Part shown: piece by piece, positions 3,599 to 55,746 of the stretch | Layout of the letters: every line of letters starts with the position of its first letter | Numbering within the stretch: position 1 is the first letter of the stretch | Sequence record: KM657822 | Length of the DNA stretch: 64,000 nucleotides | Direction: 5' to 3' (one strand) | Source of the DNA: Escherichia phage vB_EcoM-VpaE1 | Notes under the pieces: generated by a model | The model's input: the letters and a program-made list of their open reading frames with translations, nothing else | What the model was told of the DNA's origin: nothing | The model's database searches: none | Position numbers and translations under genes: made by a program

Positions 3599-3659
3599 AT
3601 TTGTATTTTGTGCAGAGTGCTGTATAATTGTTTTCACGATAAACTAAACAGGAGAACCA

Positions 3660-4208
3660 ATGAAGAAATTGATTCTAGGTTTGTGCTTAATGCTTACAGC
3701 ACACTTATCTTATGCAGTTGACTGCCCAGAGCTATCAATTAGCCAAAAAGTAAACATGTTAAAAGCTTACCAGTATGGTGAGAATAACATGGGTAAAGGT
3801 TGGGGTATAACTCTAGCTGCTATAGCCTTACAAGAGTCAGAGTTAGGTCTGAAGGTAGAGAATAAAAAGACACATGATTATGGTATTTTCCAGAATCACT
3901 TGAAGACTGTTGTAAAGCGTAACAAAATTAGTCCTAATGTGGCTAAAAAGAAACTCTTAAAAGACTTTGACTATGCTGCAAAGGAAACGCACAAAGAGCT
4001 TGAGTTTTGGACAAAGGTACATGGTCAGCCAAAGTCAAAGAAGACTTTACAAAAAGTTTTAGCATCATATAATGCTGGGTATTCGTACAGAATCCCTAAA
4101 GCTAAGAAGTATTCTCAAGATGTCTATAACAACATGAAAGTTATCGCTCAATGTGAATTTGCAACAAACATTTCTAAGGTAAATCATGAAAAAATTAAGA
4201 AAGTCTGA
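3660..4208 (+). CDS. secreted protein, lytic transglycosylase (SLT)-like
   Basis: N-terminal signal peptide MKKLILGLCLMLTAHLSYA; AIALQESELG...YGIFQ resembles the SLT catalytic-Glu region. Confidence 0.4.
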   Translation: MKKLILGLCLMLTAHLSYAVDCPELSISQKVNMLKAYQYGENNMGKGWGITLAAIALQESELGLKVENKKTHDYGIFQNHLKTVVKRNKISPNVAKKKLLKDFDYAAKETHKELEFWTKVHGQPKSKKTLQKVLASYNAGYSYRIPKAKKYSQDVYNNMKVIAQCEFATNISKVNHEKIKKV

Positions 4209-42021: not shown

Positions 42022-50040
<8,019 letters not shown>

Positions 50041-50042
50041 TA

Positions 50043-51215
50043 ATGGCAGTAGGTGAAATTCAAATTAGTGCCTTGCCTCAAGCAGCCTTACCAATTGACC
50101 TTAGTGATATCTTCCATCTTAAGCAGGGTATTGAGGATAAGAGATGTACTCTTGAGCAATTACTTGCTCCACACTCAAGCCTAAGAAATAACCCTCATGG
50201 TGTTACTAAAACACAAATTGGTTTAGATAATGTTATTAACGCCCTTCAGTTAGTTGCTGCAAATAACTTATCAGATATTGTTAATGTAGCTGAGGCAAGA
50301 GCAAATCTACAGATTATGTCTTCAGAAGAGGTTAATAACCTTGTTCAACAGCATATTCAGGACAAGAGCAACCCACACAATACAACTAAGGCACAGGTTG
50401 GTTTAAGTAATGTTCAGAACTGGACAACATCTAACCTTTATAATGAGGATGCAGATAAGTACGCTACAGCAAGAGCAGTAAATAACTTGTACAAGGCTGT
50501 TCAGGCTTCCTATCCAGTAGGTACTATCCATCTTTCCATGAACTCTGCAAACCCCTCTACATATTTAATTTGTGGAGGTACTTGGGAGTTAGTTTCAAAG
50601 GGTAGAGCATTGGTTGGTTATGACTCTGACACAAGACCAGCAGGTTCTGTATTTGGTGCTTCAACTGTCACTTTGTCAGTTAATAACATGCCTCAACACT
50701 CTCACTCTGTGTCTCTTAGTGGTGGTGGTCATACTCATAATGCAACGGTGTCAATTTCAGCTTTTGACTATGGGGCTAAGACTACCAACTCTTTTGACTA
50801 TGGAACAAAGGATACCAATACAACTGGTAACCATACACACAACGTATCAGGGAACACAAGTACAAATGGCACTCACAACCATGATGTATACCCTAGAGAA
50901 AATGATGGTACTGGTAATGCTGTAGCTGACTCTGATGGTGGTGGTGCATGGAGAACATCAAGAACATCTAGTGACGGTGCACACTCACATAGTTTTAGCG
51001 TTACATCTGGTACATCTGGTAACCACAGCCACTCTGTAGGTATTGGTGCTCACAGCCACACAGTCGGTATTGGTTCACATACACACAGTGGTGCTGTGAC
51101 AGTTTCTTCTTCTGAGCATACACATAGTGGCAATACGAATAGTGTTGGTGGAGGTCAGGCAGTTAATATTGAACAGCCATCCTTCGTACTGTATGTATGG
51201 CAGAGAACAGCTTAA
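50043..51215 (+). CDS. tail fiber protein with C-terminal HxH-repeat tip
   Basis: C-terminal repeats [32 protein letters not shown]; C-terminus shared with the next fiber. Confidence 0.65.
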
Positions 51216-51225
51216 TTTCTTTACA

Positions 51226-51246
51226 GGGGCTTTCAAGCCCCTTTTA
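51226..51246 (+). terminator. intrinsic terminator
   Basis: Hairpin ggggctttcaagcccc followed by T-run. Confidence 0.65.
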
Positions 51247-51261
51247 AGAGGAAAATTTATA

Positions 51262-53616
51262 ATGGCAGATTACAATTTGAGTGAATTAAACTCAATCGAT
51301 ACAATCCGTTCAGATGACCTTCTTCATGTCAGAGTTAAAAAGAGACCTGAAATGCTTGGCGATGAAGACCGTCGAATGACTTATCAAGATTTATTAGCGT
51401 CTTTTAAACTTGAAAGATTTGTTCAGATTGCTGGTAGTAATATGACAGGTGACTTAGGGATTGTTAAGTTACTTTATGGTGGTAAGGCAGTATTTGACCC
51501 AACAGGCTCTTCTGAGATTAATATTGGGGATGTTTTAAAGACTTTTAAAATTAACGCAAATGGTCTTAGGCTAACTATTACAGATGCTTCAAGGTCAGCA
51601 ACTGTTTATCATACTCTGAATAAACCAAGTCCTAATGAACTTGGGATGAGAACTAATGAAGAGAATGATGCAAGATATGCAAGGTTGGCTGTAACAAATA
51701 ACTTCAACATTAGGCAAGCAATTGTCGTTGATGGTGAGCAGTTAACTCTTAAGAAAGCAACTAATGCAGGAGCTTCATATATTCAGGGTAGAAATGCTAA
51801 TAACCAGCAAACGTGGTATGTTGGACAGGGAAATGCAAACAACACTAATGTTTATCTGTACAATCATGCCACTGGCTCAATGTTAACCCTTGACGCAACA
51901 GCGTCATTTAACAAGACACTAAGAGTCATGGGTCAAGTTCAGCCTTCTGACTTCTCTAACTTAGATGCTAGATACTTCACTCAGACAGTTGCTAATCAGA
52001 GGTTTGCACAGTTAACTGCGAATAATACTTTTAGAGGCGTGAATACATTTAATCAAATCCTATCAATTGAGACGAATAGTGCAGCCTTAAGGTTAAAAAA
52101 TACTGTAGCTAATGGTGCACTGTACATTAAAGGTGAAAGTAATGATGGCTCTAGTAAGTGGTATGTAGGTAATGGTGATAATACACCTGCCGTATTAATT
52201 CACAACTATACATATGGGTCTAATCTTAGACTCGACAATGGTTATGTTGAGGTTAATAAGCAACTTAAAGTCGTTGGTCAAGTTCAACCTTCTGATTGGA
52301 CTAACATTGACTCTAGATATATTCCGGCAGGAACTTTGAGTAATCTTGCTAAACTTAATGTATCTAATACTTTCACAAATGTGCAAACTATTGTGTCTGA
52401 CAACGAGGGTTTGGTATTAAGGAGCTTAACACAGGGACAGCCACAATATATCCGTGGTGTTGATACTGCGAATGTATCTAGGTGGTGGCTGGGCGCAGGA
52501 AGTGCTAATTCTAACGTGGTAACCTTGAGCAACAGCTTTTCAGGCACTCAAATTTCCCTAGAGCCAACATTGGTTAGTATGAATAAGAACCTGTATATTA
52601 ATGGGCAGGTTCAACCACAAGATTGGTCTAACTTAGATGCTAGATACTTTGTTAAAACTAAGTTATTAGACCAATCCTTAATGACTGTAACTGTAAATAA
52701 CCTCGAAGACCACCCAGCATTTAATCTTGGGTACTCAGGCTTTGTCAGAAACAATGGTGTTACTGACGGCTTGAGGGATTTGGCAATTCATGTTGCACAC
52801 TCTAGCAAGACTGCTGCATATGCAAGAGGTATCTCTTTTTCGTATGGCTCAATGGGTTTAGGGGTATTCACCTATGCCTATGATGACGAGGGTGAATACG
52901 CTGGAGAAGCACAGCTTTATACAACTGATTTTAAACCAACACCTTCAGATATTGGTGCATATACTAAAGCTGAAACTGACCAGAAGATTGCACAGGCAGT
53001 AAGTGACTCTACAGACCTTAATAAAATCTATCCAGTAGGTATTGTAACGTGGTTTAATAGTAACGTTGACCCTAATACAGCACTTCCTGGTCTAACTTGG
53101 ACGTACCTGAATAATGGTGTTGGTAGAACTATCAGAATCGCAGCAGCAAATGGTTCAGATGTTGCTACAACAGGTGGTTCAGATTCTGTGACGCTATCTG
53201 TTGGTAACTTGCCATCACACACCCATAGTTTCTCTGCTACCACTTCATCTTTTGATTATGGTACGAAGGGAACTAACACTACAGGTGGACACACTCACTC
53301 TGGTAGTGGTTCTACTAGCACAAATGGTGAGCACAGCCACTACATCGAGGCATGGAATGGTACTGGTAGAGGTGGTGATAAGATGTCATCATATGCCGTA
53401 TCATACAGGACGGGTGGGAGTAACACTAATGCAGCAGGGAACCATAGTCATACTTTCTCTTTTGGTACTAGCGGTGCTGGCGACCATTCCCACTCTGTAG
53501 GTATTGGTGCTCACAGTCACACAGTCAGTGGTAATACTGGTGGTACAGGTTCTGGTTCAGCATTTAGTGTTACCAACCAGTTCTACAAGTTAATGGCTTG
53601 GGTAAGAACTGCTTAA
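51262..53616 (+). CDS. long tail fiber protein with internal repeats and HxH-repeat tip
   Basis: Start set at ATG 51262 to avoid overlap with previous gene; three repeats ending GQVQPSD(W/F)(S/T)N(L/I)D(A/S)RY; C-terminus paralogous to previous fiber. Confidence 0.7.
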
Positions 53617-53695: not shown

Positions 53696-53890
53696 ATGCC
53701 TACAATCCTAGCAATTCTTCTAAAAAATCTAGGTAGCTTCTTCTGGAAACTCATTTTATCCCTTCTAAGTGAATACATGATTGAGAAAGTGTTCTTTAAG
53801 CTTGCAAGATACCTTGCGAGTAAAACAGACACGCCTATCGATGATGAGTTCGTAGATAACTTAGAAAAAGCTTTTAAGGGGGAGAAATAA
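53696..53890 (+). CDS. small membrane protein (holin candidate)
   Basis: 64 aa with hydrophobic segments. Confidence 0.35.
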   Translation: MPTILAILLKNLGSFFWKLILSLLSEYMIEKVFFKLARYLASKTDTPIDDEFVDNLEKAFKGEK

Positions 53891-54262
53891 ATGAAGTGGC
53901 TAGAGGAAGCTTTTAAAAACAATATTGGTGCAATTGTTGTTGGTATTTTTAGTGTTATTGGGATGTATACCACCATGCAAGTTTCAAGTGGTAAGCAAGA
54001 AGTGTCTATCACAACAAAGTTACAGCAGCTAGATAATTATTCCAAAAGTAATTATTCAGCTATTCGTGATTTACAGTCTGACATGAGACTGCTTCAGTTA
54101 GGGATGGAGAACCAGAAAGTCCAGTTAGAGAATGTTAAGGGAGAGAACGCAAAACTTACTAAGACTCTTGATAAATTCTCTGATAGCGTGAACAATCTGG
54201 CTCAGTCAGTATCAGCCCTCCAAGCTATTACTGAAAAGAACACAAAGAATACTGAAAAGTAA
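53891..54262 (+). CDS. membrane-anchored coiled-coil protein (lysis-associated candidate)
   Basis: N-terminal TM then coiled-coil. Confidence 0.35.
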   Translation: MKWLEEAFKNNIGAIVVGIFSVIGMYTTMQVSSGKQEVSITTKLQQLDNYSKSNYSAIRDLQSDMRLLQLGMENQKVQLENVKGENAKLTKTLDKFSDSVNNLAQSVSALQAITEKNTKNTEK

Positions 54263-54267
54263 AGTTT

Positions 54268-54296
54268 AAGGCTCCTTTTTACGGGAGCCTTTTTTG
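54268..54296. terminator. bidirectional intrinsic terminator between convergent blocks
   Basis: Hairpin aaggctcc...ggagcctt flanked by T-run. Confidence 0.7.
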
Positions 54297-54299
54297 TTT

Positions 54300-55199
54300 C
54301 TACTTACCTACTGACAAAGGTGCTTCAATCTTTCCTGCATGTTGGTAGTTACTAATTCCACCGATAAAGTCACTTGCAGTAAGATGTTTTAAGTCACTTA
54401 AAGTGTTAAGCTGTACACCAATCTCAAAAGTAGGTGCATGAAACTCTTCATTGTTCATCAGTTCATAGACCTGCTTCATATGGTTATGATAAATCTGAGT
54501 ATCTCCAAAGACACCTATCAAGTATCGTGGAGTGTATCCAGTCATCTTACAAAGAACTTCTAAGATGAAGCCATAAGACGCAATATTAAACGGAAGTCCT
54601 AAAAAGGTGTCTACAGAACGCTGATACCATTGTAAGTCAACTTCACCTTCATTAGTAATATAAATCTGAAACAGAACATGGCAAGGTGCTAAAGCCATCG
54701 AGTTAGCTGAAATATCTGCTGCATTCCAAGCATTAACAAGCATGTAGCGGTCTGTAATATCACCCTTCATCTTCGTTACTAAGGTCTCTAACTGGTCTAC
54801 AACACAACCATTATGACCCTCAAAGTTTCTCCACTGAACCCCGTAGATTCTACCACCTGCATCCTCTAACCAGTCTTGTTCAGAAGAGTAGTTAGAGCTT
54901 AACCAACGTTTAAAATCATCTGACCAGATAGTCCAGCGTTCCCCATCATTTTCACCCCAAGTACGGTAACGGAGTTCACCAAGTTTATTCTCACCATTCA
55001 GGAACCATAAAGCTTCCCCAATAACTTGCCGTGTAAACACCTGTTTAGATGTTAAGAGTGGAAAACCAGTCCTCATATCAAAACGAAATTGTGGTGGAGC
55101 AAATGCAGAGATAACATCTCCAGTTCGTGTAGTACGCAGTTCACCAACGGATAAAACATGGTTCAGGATATTTTTGTAACTTGAATCTGCTTGTGACAT
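54300..55199 (-). CDS. td: thymidylate synthase
   Basis: RTGTG-type N-motif, FPLLTSK, and active-site LAPCHVLFQIY. Confidence 0.85.
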   Translation of the reverse strand: MSQADSSYKNILNHVLSVGELRTTRTGDVISAFAPPQFRFDMRTGFPLLTSKQVFTRQVIGEALWFLNGENKLGELRYRTWGENDGERWTIWSDDFKRWLSSNYSSEQDWLEDAGGRIYGVQWRNFEGHNGCVVDQLETLVTKMKGDITDRYMLVNAWNAADISANSMALAPCHVLFQIYITNEGEVDLQWYQRSVDTFLGLPFNIASYGFILEVLCKMTGYTPRYLIGVFGDTQIYHNHMKQVYELMNNEEFHAPTFEIGVQLNTLSDLKHLTASDFIGGISNYQHAGKIEAPLSVGK

Positions 55200-55200
55200 A

Positions 55201-55746
55201 TCAAAAGTGTCCTTTTACTTGTGGAACATAGATTTCAAAGGTTGCTTTACCATCATCTGAGGGTCTTGACTGCACCTTTGCAAATACACGGCTATCATAC
55301 AGTTTCTCGAAGAAGTTTTCAAAAGGTAAATACACAGTGGCCTCTTCAGTAACTTTATGGAAAACTGTATGGAAAACTACACCAGCATATGGTAAAGCAT
55401 TGACAAGGACACCTGCACCACCAATTACAAAGACATCTTCATCAATAGAGCTATCAAGATACTTCAAAAATGCTCCAAAGGATTCTTTACTGGCCTTAGC
55501 ATACATTACATCATCTTTGTCAAAGTCTATACCCAAATATGGAACAGAGTTCGTTAAGACGAGGTTTGTACGTTCTGGTAATGGTTTACTACCCAGAGTC
55601 TTGAAAGTCTCATTACCCATCACTACTAAGTTGTTTTTAGTGAGTCTCTTAAACTCTTGCATATCCTGTTTATGTCGAGGCCACGGCATACCAGTTGGAG
55701 TACCAAACTCCCCATTTTCACCACTTGCAAAGATTAATTTAATCAT
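55201..55746 (-). CDS. frd: dihydrofolate reductase
   Basis: MIKLIFA...G.PTGMPW...D...F...T.NNLVVMG matches the DHFR signature. Confidence 0.85.
   Translation of the reverse strand: MIKLIFASGENGEFGTPTGMPWPRHKQDMQEFKRLTKNNLVVMGNETFKTLGSKPLPERTNLVLTNSVPYLGIDFDKDDVMYAKASKESFGAFLKYLDSSIDEDVFVIGGAGVLVNALPYAGVVFHTVFHKVTEEATVYLPFENFFEKLYDSRVFAKVQSRPSDDGKATFEIYVPQVKGHF

Follow-up and report, generated by a model that had tools for sequence, protein, structure and literature searches.

Two adjacent genes in the 64-kb stretch of DNA analysed here (the window) very probably encode the short and the long tail fibre (STF and LTF) of a Felixounavirus, both ending in receptor-binding tips of the T4 gp37 type with exchangeable heads, the head of the long fibre having been exchanged with a T4-type gene 37. 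A pair of short and long fibres with gp37-like HxH tips is already known in the Ounavirinae, having been published in 2025 for Bas63 and Sf14, and the tips are known to differ from species to species. In this study the two receptor-binding heads are placed exactly, at 50883-50981 and 53341-53442, and the comparison with relatives suggests that small head cassettes, embedded in conserved scaffolds, determine host range in the genus, one cassette being near-identical to T4 DNA. The cassette edges would be natural swap boundaries for fibre engineering.

Layout of the fibre locus

By sequence, the source of the window can be assigned to the Felixounaviruses (Felix O1-like myoviruses), positions 25000-49999 being 97% identical to many members of this genus. 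The interval under study is occupied by two adjacent + strand ORFs, the short fibre followed by the long fibre, with a gene for a small protein just before them:

49738..50040, + strand: gene of a 100-aa protein, just 5' of the STF gene (full-length match to PHROG 4141, E 3e-62)
50043..51215, + strand: STF gene, 390 aa (PHROG 2097, tail fibre, E 5e-137)
51216..51261, + strand: 46-nt spacer between STF and LTF, with a G+C-rich hairpin at 51225-51242 and the LTF ribosome-binding site AAGAGG
51262..53616, + strand: LTF gene, 784 aa (end-to-end match to PHROG 4277, 1272 bits)

The STF gene is the homologue of Bas63 gp26 and Sf14 gp52, and the LTF gene that of Bas63 gp27 and Sf14 gp53. In both of these Ounavirinae phages, Bas63 being Escherichia phage JohannRWettstein, cryo-EM has revealed the two fibre proteins as trimers on the virion baseplate (PMC12609058, PMC11821841). 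The gene order, with a 489-aa wedge protein, a 285-aa wedge protein, the 100-aa protein, STF and LTF, is that of Bas63 (PMC12609058), and by position and size the 100-aa protein probably corresponds to Bas63 gp25, the 'LTF platform' described in the same paper as the site where the long fibre attaches. The Sf14 fibres are 391 and 792 aa long, compared with 390 and 784 aa here, and the STF is 97% identical to those of EC106, NBEco005 and REP8. ORF sizes and order, PHROG matches, genomic backbone and published sizes thus agree on a Felixounavirus fibre pair, and the locus shares with Bas63 and Sf14 the same genus-level module, with its gene order, repeated LTF shaft domains and lack of a fibre chaperone gene. 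The head alleles differ from those of both phages, the LTF head here being that of T4.

The ORF list starts the LTF at GTG 51127; judging from the sequence, the true start is, with near certainty, ATG 51262, preceded by AAGAGG and the 46-nt spacer. Related genomes annotate a 1173-nt gene, a 46-nt gap and a 2358-nt gene, with an identical LTF start. The spacer hairpin has a computed fold of about -16 kcal/mol and was not called by a consensus terminator scan; the number of promoter and terminator sites predicted in the fibre locus did not exceed that in shuffled sequences.

Baseplate anchors and shaft

A conserved N-terminal baseplate-binding domain is present in both fibres. Alignment of the two N-termini revealed a common 14-aa motif, G(I/D)ED(K/R)R(C/M)T..(Q/D)LLA, and the same Cys/Met motif is carried by Sf14 gp52 and gp53 (PMC11821841). 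Among six phages compared, the N-terminal ~120 residues of the fibres are 90-100% identical, and the following region is invariant:

50043..50222, + strand: STF N-terminal baseplate-binding region (14-aa motif common to LTF)

By homology, each fibre protein would form a homotrimer attached to the baseplate through this short domain.

The longer fibre had been credited by the first-pass annotation with three internal repeats of about 90 aa. Three repeats are indeed present, but their units measure 109-115 aa. Self-BLASTP of the LTF returned the identity match alone, with no repeat alignment; the repeats emerged once the sequence was divided at the motif GQVQP and the resulting units were compared, whose pairwise identity is 35-46% (E 1e-19 to 1e-27). 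Each of them is backed by this unit comparison, by a repeat HMM and by Pfam:

51637..51981, + strand: LTF repeat 1, aa 126-240
51982..52326, + strand: LTF repeat 2, aa 241-355
52327..52653, + strand: LTF repeat 3, aa 356-464

Pfam PF20744 (gp37_trimer) matches the LTF in three stretches (E 7e-66, 218.7 bits against a gathering cutoff of 21.7), suggesting a long fibre shaft made of three tandem domains of the gp37_trimer type. Bas63 has been described with five beta-helix repeat domains; here three are recognisable by sequence, and a search of the LTF with an HMM of these units revealed no fourth or fifth copy. Repeat 2 is also weakly similar to the pyramid domain of T7 gp17 (4A0T, E 1e-3).

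gp37-type tips with unlike heads

Each of the two proteins ends in a collar, an outgoing needle strand, a small head and a returning needle strand, of which the following were delimited:

50502..50696, + strand: STF collar domain, about aa 154-218, beginning YPVGTIHL (Pfam Gp10_C, E 2e-17)
50697..50882, + strand: STF outgoing needle strand, 4 HxH (HxH positions, three-way alignment, 2XGF match)
50883..50981, + strand: STF head domain, aa 281-313 (33 aa), predicted receptor-contacting tip (three-way alignment with gp37)
50982..51125, + strand: STF returning needle strand, 5 HxH (HxH positions, three-way alignment)
53020..53217, + strand: LTF collar domain, about aa 587-652, beginning YPVGIVTW (Pfam Gp10_C; aligned with the STF and gp37 collars)
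53341..53442, + strand: LTF head domain, aa 694-727 (34 aa), equal to the T4 gp37 head with four substitutions

That both fibres end in His-rich HxH arrays of the T4 gp37 type, as noticed in the first reading of the DNA, is borne out. The STF contains nine motifs (aa 219, 230, 264 and 278, then 314, 328, 337, 346 and 359) and the LTF six (aa 653, 677 and 691, then 728, 742 and 751), numbers never reached in 20000 shuffles, which gave on average 1.4 motifs for the STF and 0.44 for the LTF, and at most 7 and 4. The STF (E 2e-27) and the LTF (E 6e-52) both match the gp37 tip in its crystal structure (2XGF), and in a three-way alignment of STF, LTF and gp37 the motifs are in register, distributed between outgoing and returning strands as 4+5, 3+3 and 3+4, T4 gp37 thus having seven motifs against six in the LTF. 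The shuffling, together with the in-register alignment to 2XGF, rules out a compositional artefact as the origin of the arrays. Bas63, compared by its published description, has seven motifs in the STF and six, including one HHxH, in the LTF.

The STF collar aligns with the gp37 collar in 2XGF and with T4 gp10, and the phmmer alignment of STF to 2XGF begins within it. The LTF collar scores 25.3 bits against Gp10_C, slightly below the 27-bit cutoff; this region is 93-100% identical across the six phages. In the gp37-type tip, the chain descends the needle, makes the head and comes back (Bas63 paper, PMC12609058). A collar before the needle, HxH motifs on two strands and a small head between the strands are found in both fibres, to which the Bas63 description (collar, HxH needle, head, chain doubling back) applies; for the LTF, 90% identity to the crystal structure 2XGF already fixes the fold of the tip. 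Each fibre would end in a collar, a six-stranded needle and a small distal head at the turn of the chain, which places the receptor-binding head mid-module. By homology, each HxH motif from three chains is predicted to coordinate one metal ion (in T4, Fe bound octahedrally by six histidines per site of an intertwined trimer), giving nine predicted sites in the short fibre and six in the long one.

T4 gp37 has this collar, needle and head architecture in common with the fibres; the remainder of gp37 (1026 aa) gives no further BLASTP alignment with the LTF, and gp37 ends a jointed fibre of four proteins, whereas here a single protein is the whole fibre. The STF tip is also 43% identical by tblastn to lambda Stf, whose tip, like the P2-like tips, belongs to the same HxH tip family.

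The alignability of the two C-termini had been set beforehand as a test, and they do align: STF 136-341 matches LTF 563-755 with 40% identity (BLASTP, E 1e-21), and both proteins terminate in W.RTA. A shared end of about 150 aa had been proposed; the homologous module exists, but it is about 220-250 aa long, with a 21-aa indel and a dissimilar central segment. This segment is the head, which in the STF is close in length to that of the LTF and unrelated in sequence, being the one part of the module not common to both. Collar, needle flanks and C-terminus would thus form a conserved scaffold common to both fibres, in which the heads are exchangeable cassettes. As the two heads differ, each fibre most likely recognises a surface structure of its own.

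It is possible, although we would not favour it, that the two fibres are not parallel alternative determinants of host range and divide the labour as in T4, the LTF making the reversible first contact and the STF binding irreversibly in the manner of gp12. One baseplate with two fibre lengths and different heads would suit such a scheme, as would the Bas63 virions, in which both fibres were seen folded up along the sheath and LTF occupancy varies. Against it, the STF lacks homology to gp12 and has a gp37-type tip and an N-terminal anchor of the same kind as the LTF. The scheme is structurally compatible with exchangeable heads on a common scaffold, differing from it in the order of events alone.

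Head cassettes and the question of duplication

Heads vary as cassettes among Felixounaviruses. In the six-phage alignments, LTF aa 691-720 drop to 23% identity with the window, between flanks that are 77-100% identical. The same is observed in the STF, where aa 271-300 are 23-30% identical to the window in KhF1 and Felix O1, with flanks of 77-100%; over aa 271-330, 23-47% of residues are identical to those of these two phages, and the flanks are conserved.

In nucleotide comparison, the STF and LTF genes of the window have a single stretch of 53 nt in common, with 87% identity, which corresponds to the 'His box':

51016..51068, + strand: STF His-box DNA, encoding 17 aa (87% identical to 53477-53529, about 81% to T4 gene 37)
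53477..53529, + strand: LTF copy of the His-box DNA (DNA comparison of both fibre genes)

With only 53 nt of DNA in common, the STF/LTF paralogy is old and not a recent duplication. The first-pass annotation had read module duplication between the fibres as a sign of host-range shuffling. Had the C-terminal tip been duplicated recently, giving both fibres one receptor specificity to shuffle between them, this could account for the alignment of the modules (E 1e-21), and in Felix O1 the two fibre genes do share a 207-nt block of 87% identity that includes a nearly identical head. Sharing of the tip from fibre to fibre therefore stands for Felix O1, with the same head on both fibres, but not for this genome: besides the short common DNA, the overall identity of STF and LTF is 40%, their head segments cannot be aligned, and the LTF block described below is much nearer to T4 (90% in amino acids) than to the adjacent STF. 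We consider such a duplication very unlikely here. The clear shuffling signal in this sequence is the LTF block shared with T4 gene 37, together with the head cassettes, rather than an STF-LTF duplication.

A block shared with T4 gene 37

The LTF contains a mosaic block in common with T4 gene 37:

53239..53526, + strand: mosaic block, LTF aa 660-755 corresponding to gp37 898-993 (outgoing needle, head and returning needle, with all six HxH motifs but the first)

Its identity to T4 gene 37 is 94.2% over 275 nt (megablast) or 93.0% over 287 nt (blastn), and BLASTP aligns LTF 658-756 with gp37 896-994 at 90% identity over 99 aa. Seventeen of the 96 codons differ, ten of them synonymously. The similarity stops abruptly at both edges, vanishing within a few codons. 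Among the matches listed, the block was found in a minority of Felixounaviruses, all of them either from E. coli hosts or lacking a host entry, and not in any Salmonella phage. The STF has short nucleotide matches only with T4 gene 37, of at most 65 nt and about 81%.

These boundaries suggest an exchange of the LTF head with a T4-type gene 37 through homologous recombination, for which the conserved stretches coding for FDYGTK and the His box are the likely crossover points; the direction of transfer between T4 and the Felixounavirus cannot be told. It is extremely unlikely that strong purifying selection, or convergence towards a constrained fold for metal binding, produced the near-identity in place of lateral transfer: the needle is structurally constrained and conserved His-box DNA occurs in many phages, but the block is 93-94% identical in nucleotides with ten synonymous differences in 96 codons, the similarity is lost within a few codons on either side, unrelated heads occupy this site in other Felixounaviruses, and the adjacent STF, of the same fold, matches gene 37 over at most 65 nt.

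Tetart, Desplats and Krisch are said to have proposed in the 1990s a 'His box' model, in which domains of T-even fibre genes are swapped by recombination at conserved motifs. The locus resembles that model in having a variable receptor-binding segment flanked by GxHxH-coding DNA, with block edges at or near the motifs. It differs in that the exchange crosses from Straboviridae to Ounavirinae and, in Felix O1, also occurs between paralogous fibre genes of one genome.

Assembly and receptor of the T4-type head

Folding of T4 gp37 requires gp38 and gp57A. By tblastn, no homologue of T4 gp38 or gp57A was found in the 64-kb window, no ~87-kb phage was among the matches listed of 348 records in a database-wide gp38 search, and no gene is named tail-fibre assembly protein in the annotation of REP8. 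The fibre locus has no adjacent gene of the gp38/Tfa type, whereas the lambda Stf/Tfa and P2-like systems have one. The LTF tip would therefore possess the gp37 fold but not the assembly system of gp37. We tentatively propose, as a scenario that is still rather doubtful, that an E. coli subgroup of Felixounaviruses gained the T4 gp37 head across families at His-box DNA and folds it without such a chaperone. The long fibre would then be a naturally chaperone-independent scaffold displaying the LPS/OmpC-binding head of T4, and such phages might use OmpC as a co-receptor, contrary to the usual LPS-only view of Felixounaviruses.

All the T4 residues listed as critical for LPS and OmpC binding (PMC6957217) are present in the LTF head. 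By analogy we infer that it binds the ligands of T4 gp37, probably LPS core sugars and possibly OmpC. The phages phiWec174 and phiWec177, which carry the LTF block at 88.7% identity, require the LPS outer-core genes waaV, waaW and waaY. Moreover, resistance mutations against phages with a T4-like head were mapped to LPS genes and not to ompC, so the use of OmpC is doubtful.

The LTF head differs from that of T4 by V941R, N944D, I951V and A955T, four substitutions located on the binding surface. The head has four non-synonymous and no synonymous changes, compared with three and ten in the needle (one-sided Fisher p = 0.015), a difference which, if the scenario above is true, would mark adaptive retuning of the binding surface.

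Layout of the fibre locus

The interval 50043-53616 is filled by two plus-strand ORFs encoding a short (STF) and a long (LTF) tail fibre. The ORF lister starts the LTF at GTG 51127, within the STF gene; we place its start at ATG 51262, because this codon is preceded by AAGAGG and a 46-nt spacer and the relatives are annotated with the same layout (1173-nt gene, 46-nt gap, 2358-nt gene).

50043..51215, plus strand: STF gene (ORF listing, 390 aa)
51262..53616, plus strand: LTF gene (784 aa)

Upstream of the real start, the LTF frame has a further 45 codons without a stop (51127-51261), which overlap the end of the STF gene and may be why some annotations are too long, for example the 844-aa 'Tail fiber 1' given for the phiWec phages. 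The spacer (51216-51261) folds as a whole at about -16 kcal/mol. It holds a G+C-rich hairpin (51225-51242), with TTTT and the ribosome-binding site after it, that could limit read-through into the LTF gene. The features listed for the KhF2 record where it matches the fibre locus include a 'terminator'.

In the 25 kb upstream, identity to many Felixounavirus genomes is 97%, whether the host is Salmonella or E. coli, while the fibre interval reaches only 88-94%, with gaps (best records EC106 and NBEco005). The LTF matches PHROG 4277 (tail fibre) end to end with 1272 bits, and the STF matches PHROG 2097 with an E-value of 5e-137.

Architecture of the fibre tips and shaft

As the first-pass annotation had noted, both fibres end in HxH arrays, with nine motifs in the STF (aa 219, 230, 264 and 278, then 314, 328, 337, 346 and 359) and six in the LTF (aa 653, 677 and 691, then 728, 742 and 751). 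Residue shuffling gave means of 1.4 and 0.44, respectively, and the observed counts were reached in none of 20000 shuffles. Their assignment to the T4 gp37 type also holds, both fibres matching the crystal structure of the gp37 tip (2XGF; E 2e-27 for the STF and 6e-52 for the LTF); in the STF/LTF/gp37 alignment, the HxH motifs stay in register, as does the collar (YPVG...). In T4, one Fe is bound per HxH from three chains. By homology, each fibre protein would form a homotrimer, with a needle stiffened by axial metal sites, nine in the STF and six in the LTF.

In a gp37-type tip, the chain leaves the collar, descends a six-stranded needle and, after building a small head, turns back (PMC12609058). 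Outgoing and returning HxH motifs number 3+4 in T4 (n=7), 4+5 in the STF and 3+3 in the LTF. With this chain-return topology, the receptor-contacting head therefore lies mid-module in both fibres:

50883-50981, plus strand: STF head (aa 281-313)
53341-53442, plus strand: LTF head (aa 694-727)

The two head sequences are unrelated in the three-way alignment, which corrects the first-pass annotation: what the fibres have in common is scaffold rather than the portion expected to touch the receptor. The heads would bind the receptor, and the two fibres would differ in specificity.

The shared C-terminus is alignable (STF 136-341 with LTF 563-755, 40% identity, BLASTP E 1e-21) and spans about 220-250 aa rather than the 150 first proposed; both proteins close with W.RTA, and they also share an N-terminal motif, as noted for the Sf14 fibres. 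The LTF does contain three tandem units (aa 126-240, 241-355 and 356-464), each of 109-115 aa and not 90, with pairwise identities of 35-46% (E 1e-19 to 1e-27). Pfam PF20744 gp37_trimer matches the LTF three times (E 7e-66), corresponding to these units, and an HMM built from the units found no further copy.

The feature is thus real and was correctly spotted, and it is ordinary and already explained. The same fibre pair has been published as gp26 (STF) and gp27 (LTF) of Bas63, both ending in a T4 gp37-like tip (PMC12609058), and as gp52 (391 aa) and gp53 (792 aa) of Sf14 (PMC11821841); the pair of fibres, their gp37-like tips with HxH motifs, the repeats in the shaft and the variability of the tips have all been described. 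Differences are minor: the present STF has nine HxH motifs, whereas that of Bas63 has seven, and three shaft repeats are recognisable by sequence in our LTF compared with five domains in Bas63.

A T4 gene 37 block in the long tail fibre

No recent duplication has taken place between the two fibre genes, since their common DNA amounts to a single 53-nt stretch (51016-51068 and 53477-53529, 87% identity), which codes for the His box. LTF nucleotides 53239-53513 are 94.2% identical to T4 gene 37, and a sensitive blastn gives a match of 287 nt at 93.0%.

53239-53526, plus strand: T4-like mosaic block in the LTF gene (LTF aa 660-755 = gp37 898-993, codon by codon)

Seventeen codons differ, ten of them synonymously. 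Similarity is gone within a few codons at either side, the edges being the FDYGTK motif and the His box, both conserved in the STF too, and BLASTP found no other alignment between gp37 and the LTF outside the block. This segment has been exchanged laterally.

Among the records listed, the block is carried by T4 and its close relatives and by a minority of Felixounaviruses (REP5-REP11, NBEco005, IME338, phiWec174, phiWec177 and AYO145A; REP12 is added from its fibre-interval match only), the host of each of the latter being E. coli or left blank in the record. For the Salmonella phages listed, the match is confined to the 38-48-nt His box.

Cassette variation among Felixounaviruses

The fibres were aligned with those of EC106, NBEco005, REP8, KhF1 and Felix O1. 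Across these six phages both fibres have conserved N-termini, collars and C-termini and variable head cassettes, identity to our phage falling to 23% in the heads of KhF1 and Felix O1. The LTF repeat domains vary as well.

51712-52881, plus strand: mosaic shaft region (LTF aa 151-540, compared with REP8 and EC106)

Over aa 361-540, REP8 is 10-37% identical to our LTF and EC106 80-100%; over aa 151-210 all relatives drop to 20-57%, as do EC106, NBEco005 and REP8 over aa 271-330. Exchange involves shaft domains as well as heads, which agrees with the Bas63 study, whose authors regarded repeat variability as unexpected (PMC12609058).

In Felix O1 (AF320576), the STF and LTF genes have a common 207-nt block (positions 1148-1354 and 3607-3813 of its locus, L009; 87% identity). 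The head encoded there is almost the same in the two, GGRYGGDSIGGKHRV.VSGTEQVSSVAGDHSH, and the fibres are likely to share a receptor, unlike those of our phage. Head exchange between paralogous fibre genes hence does occur in the genus. The shuffling between fibres proposed by the first-pass annotation is found in Felix O1 and not in the present genome, where 53 nt are common and the heads unrelated. We found no statement in the searchable literature of this common head, nor of the near-identity of the LTF tip DNA with T4 gene 37. Both fit long-known fibre mosaicism by recombination at conserved motifs, the His-box model of Tetart, Desplats and Krisch.

A 10-nt 'cos' feature annotated inside the LTF coding sequence of KhF1 (L007, 2971-2980), and also of KhF2, KhF3 and XTG1, is probably an annotation artefact.

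Predicted receptor

The LTF head differs from that of T4 by four substitutions (V941R, N944D, I951V and A955T). It keeps all the T4-critical residues, H929, H931, I933, W936, N937, G938, G940, G942, G943, S947 and Y949, as well as K945 and Y953, which belong to the OmpC patch (critical residues and patch from PMC6957217). From these retained residues, the head is predicted to bind LPS core glucose as that of T4 does, and perhaps OmpC as well. Experiments favour LPS: phiWec174 and phiWec177, which carry the T4-like block at 88.7% identity, lost infectivity when waaV, waaW or waaY was mutated, and no mutants in ompC came out of the selection (PMC12548472). Felixounaviruses are generally LPS core-dependent; for P10, one study found adsorption reduced by OmpC-related mutations too (PMC13155118).

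Inside the T4-like block, the head differences from T4 are four non-synonymous and none synonymous, against three and ten in the needle (one-sided Fisher p = 0.015, on small numbers), which hints at diversifying selection on the binding surface.

Assembly factors and neighbouring genes

Trimerisation of T4 gp37 requires both gp38 and gp57A (PMC3004832). Neither was found in the window by tblastn with the T4 proteins. A search of all phage records returned gp38 homologues in 348, the matches listed being all T4-like, lambdoid or other smaller phage genomes, with no phage of ~87 kb among them, and the REP8 annotation has no gene labelled tail-fibre assembly protein. For Sf14, each fibre is apparently a single protein without chaperone (PMC11821841).

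Proteins of 489, 285 and 100 aa are encoded directly upstream of the fibre genes; in the Bas63 cryo-EM structure, wedge 2 has 489 aa and wedge 1 has 285 aa, with the LTF platform adjoining (PMC12609058). The plus-strand ORF 46367-46990 encodes 207 aa ending in ...NEHTHHYYW, without a PHROG match. Its histidines 188 and 190 are at the positions reported for the di-histidine motif, thought to bind iron, of the Bas63 central puncturing needle (PMC12609058), and by this analogy would make a third HxH metal site within the same tail module.

On the 3' side of the LTF gene lie:

within 53696-54291: small gene, 64 aa (PHROG 402)
within 53696-54291: small gene, 123 aa (PHROG 4038)
54300-55199, minus strand: putative thymidylate synthase gene (size and position as annotated in REP8)
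55201-55746, minus strand: putative dihydrofolate reductase gene (size and position as annotated in REP8)

The minus-strand genes beyond the hairpin converge on the fibre-side genes. Both small genes have likely membrane segments and stop at a strong terminator-like hairpin (54268-54291); their products could be lysis or fibre-assembly factors.
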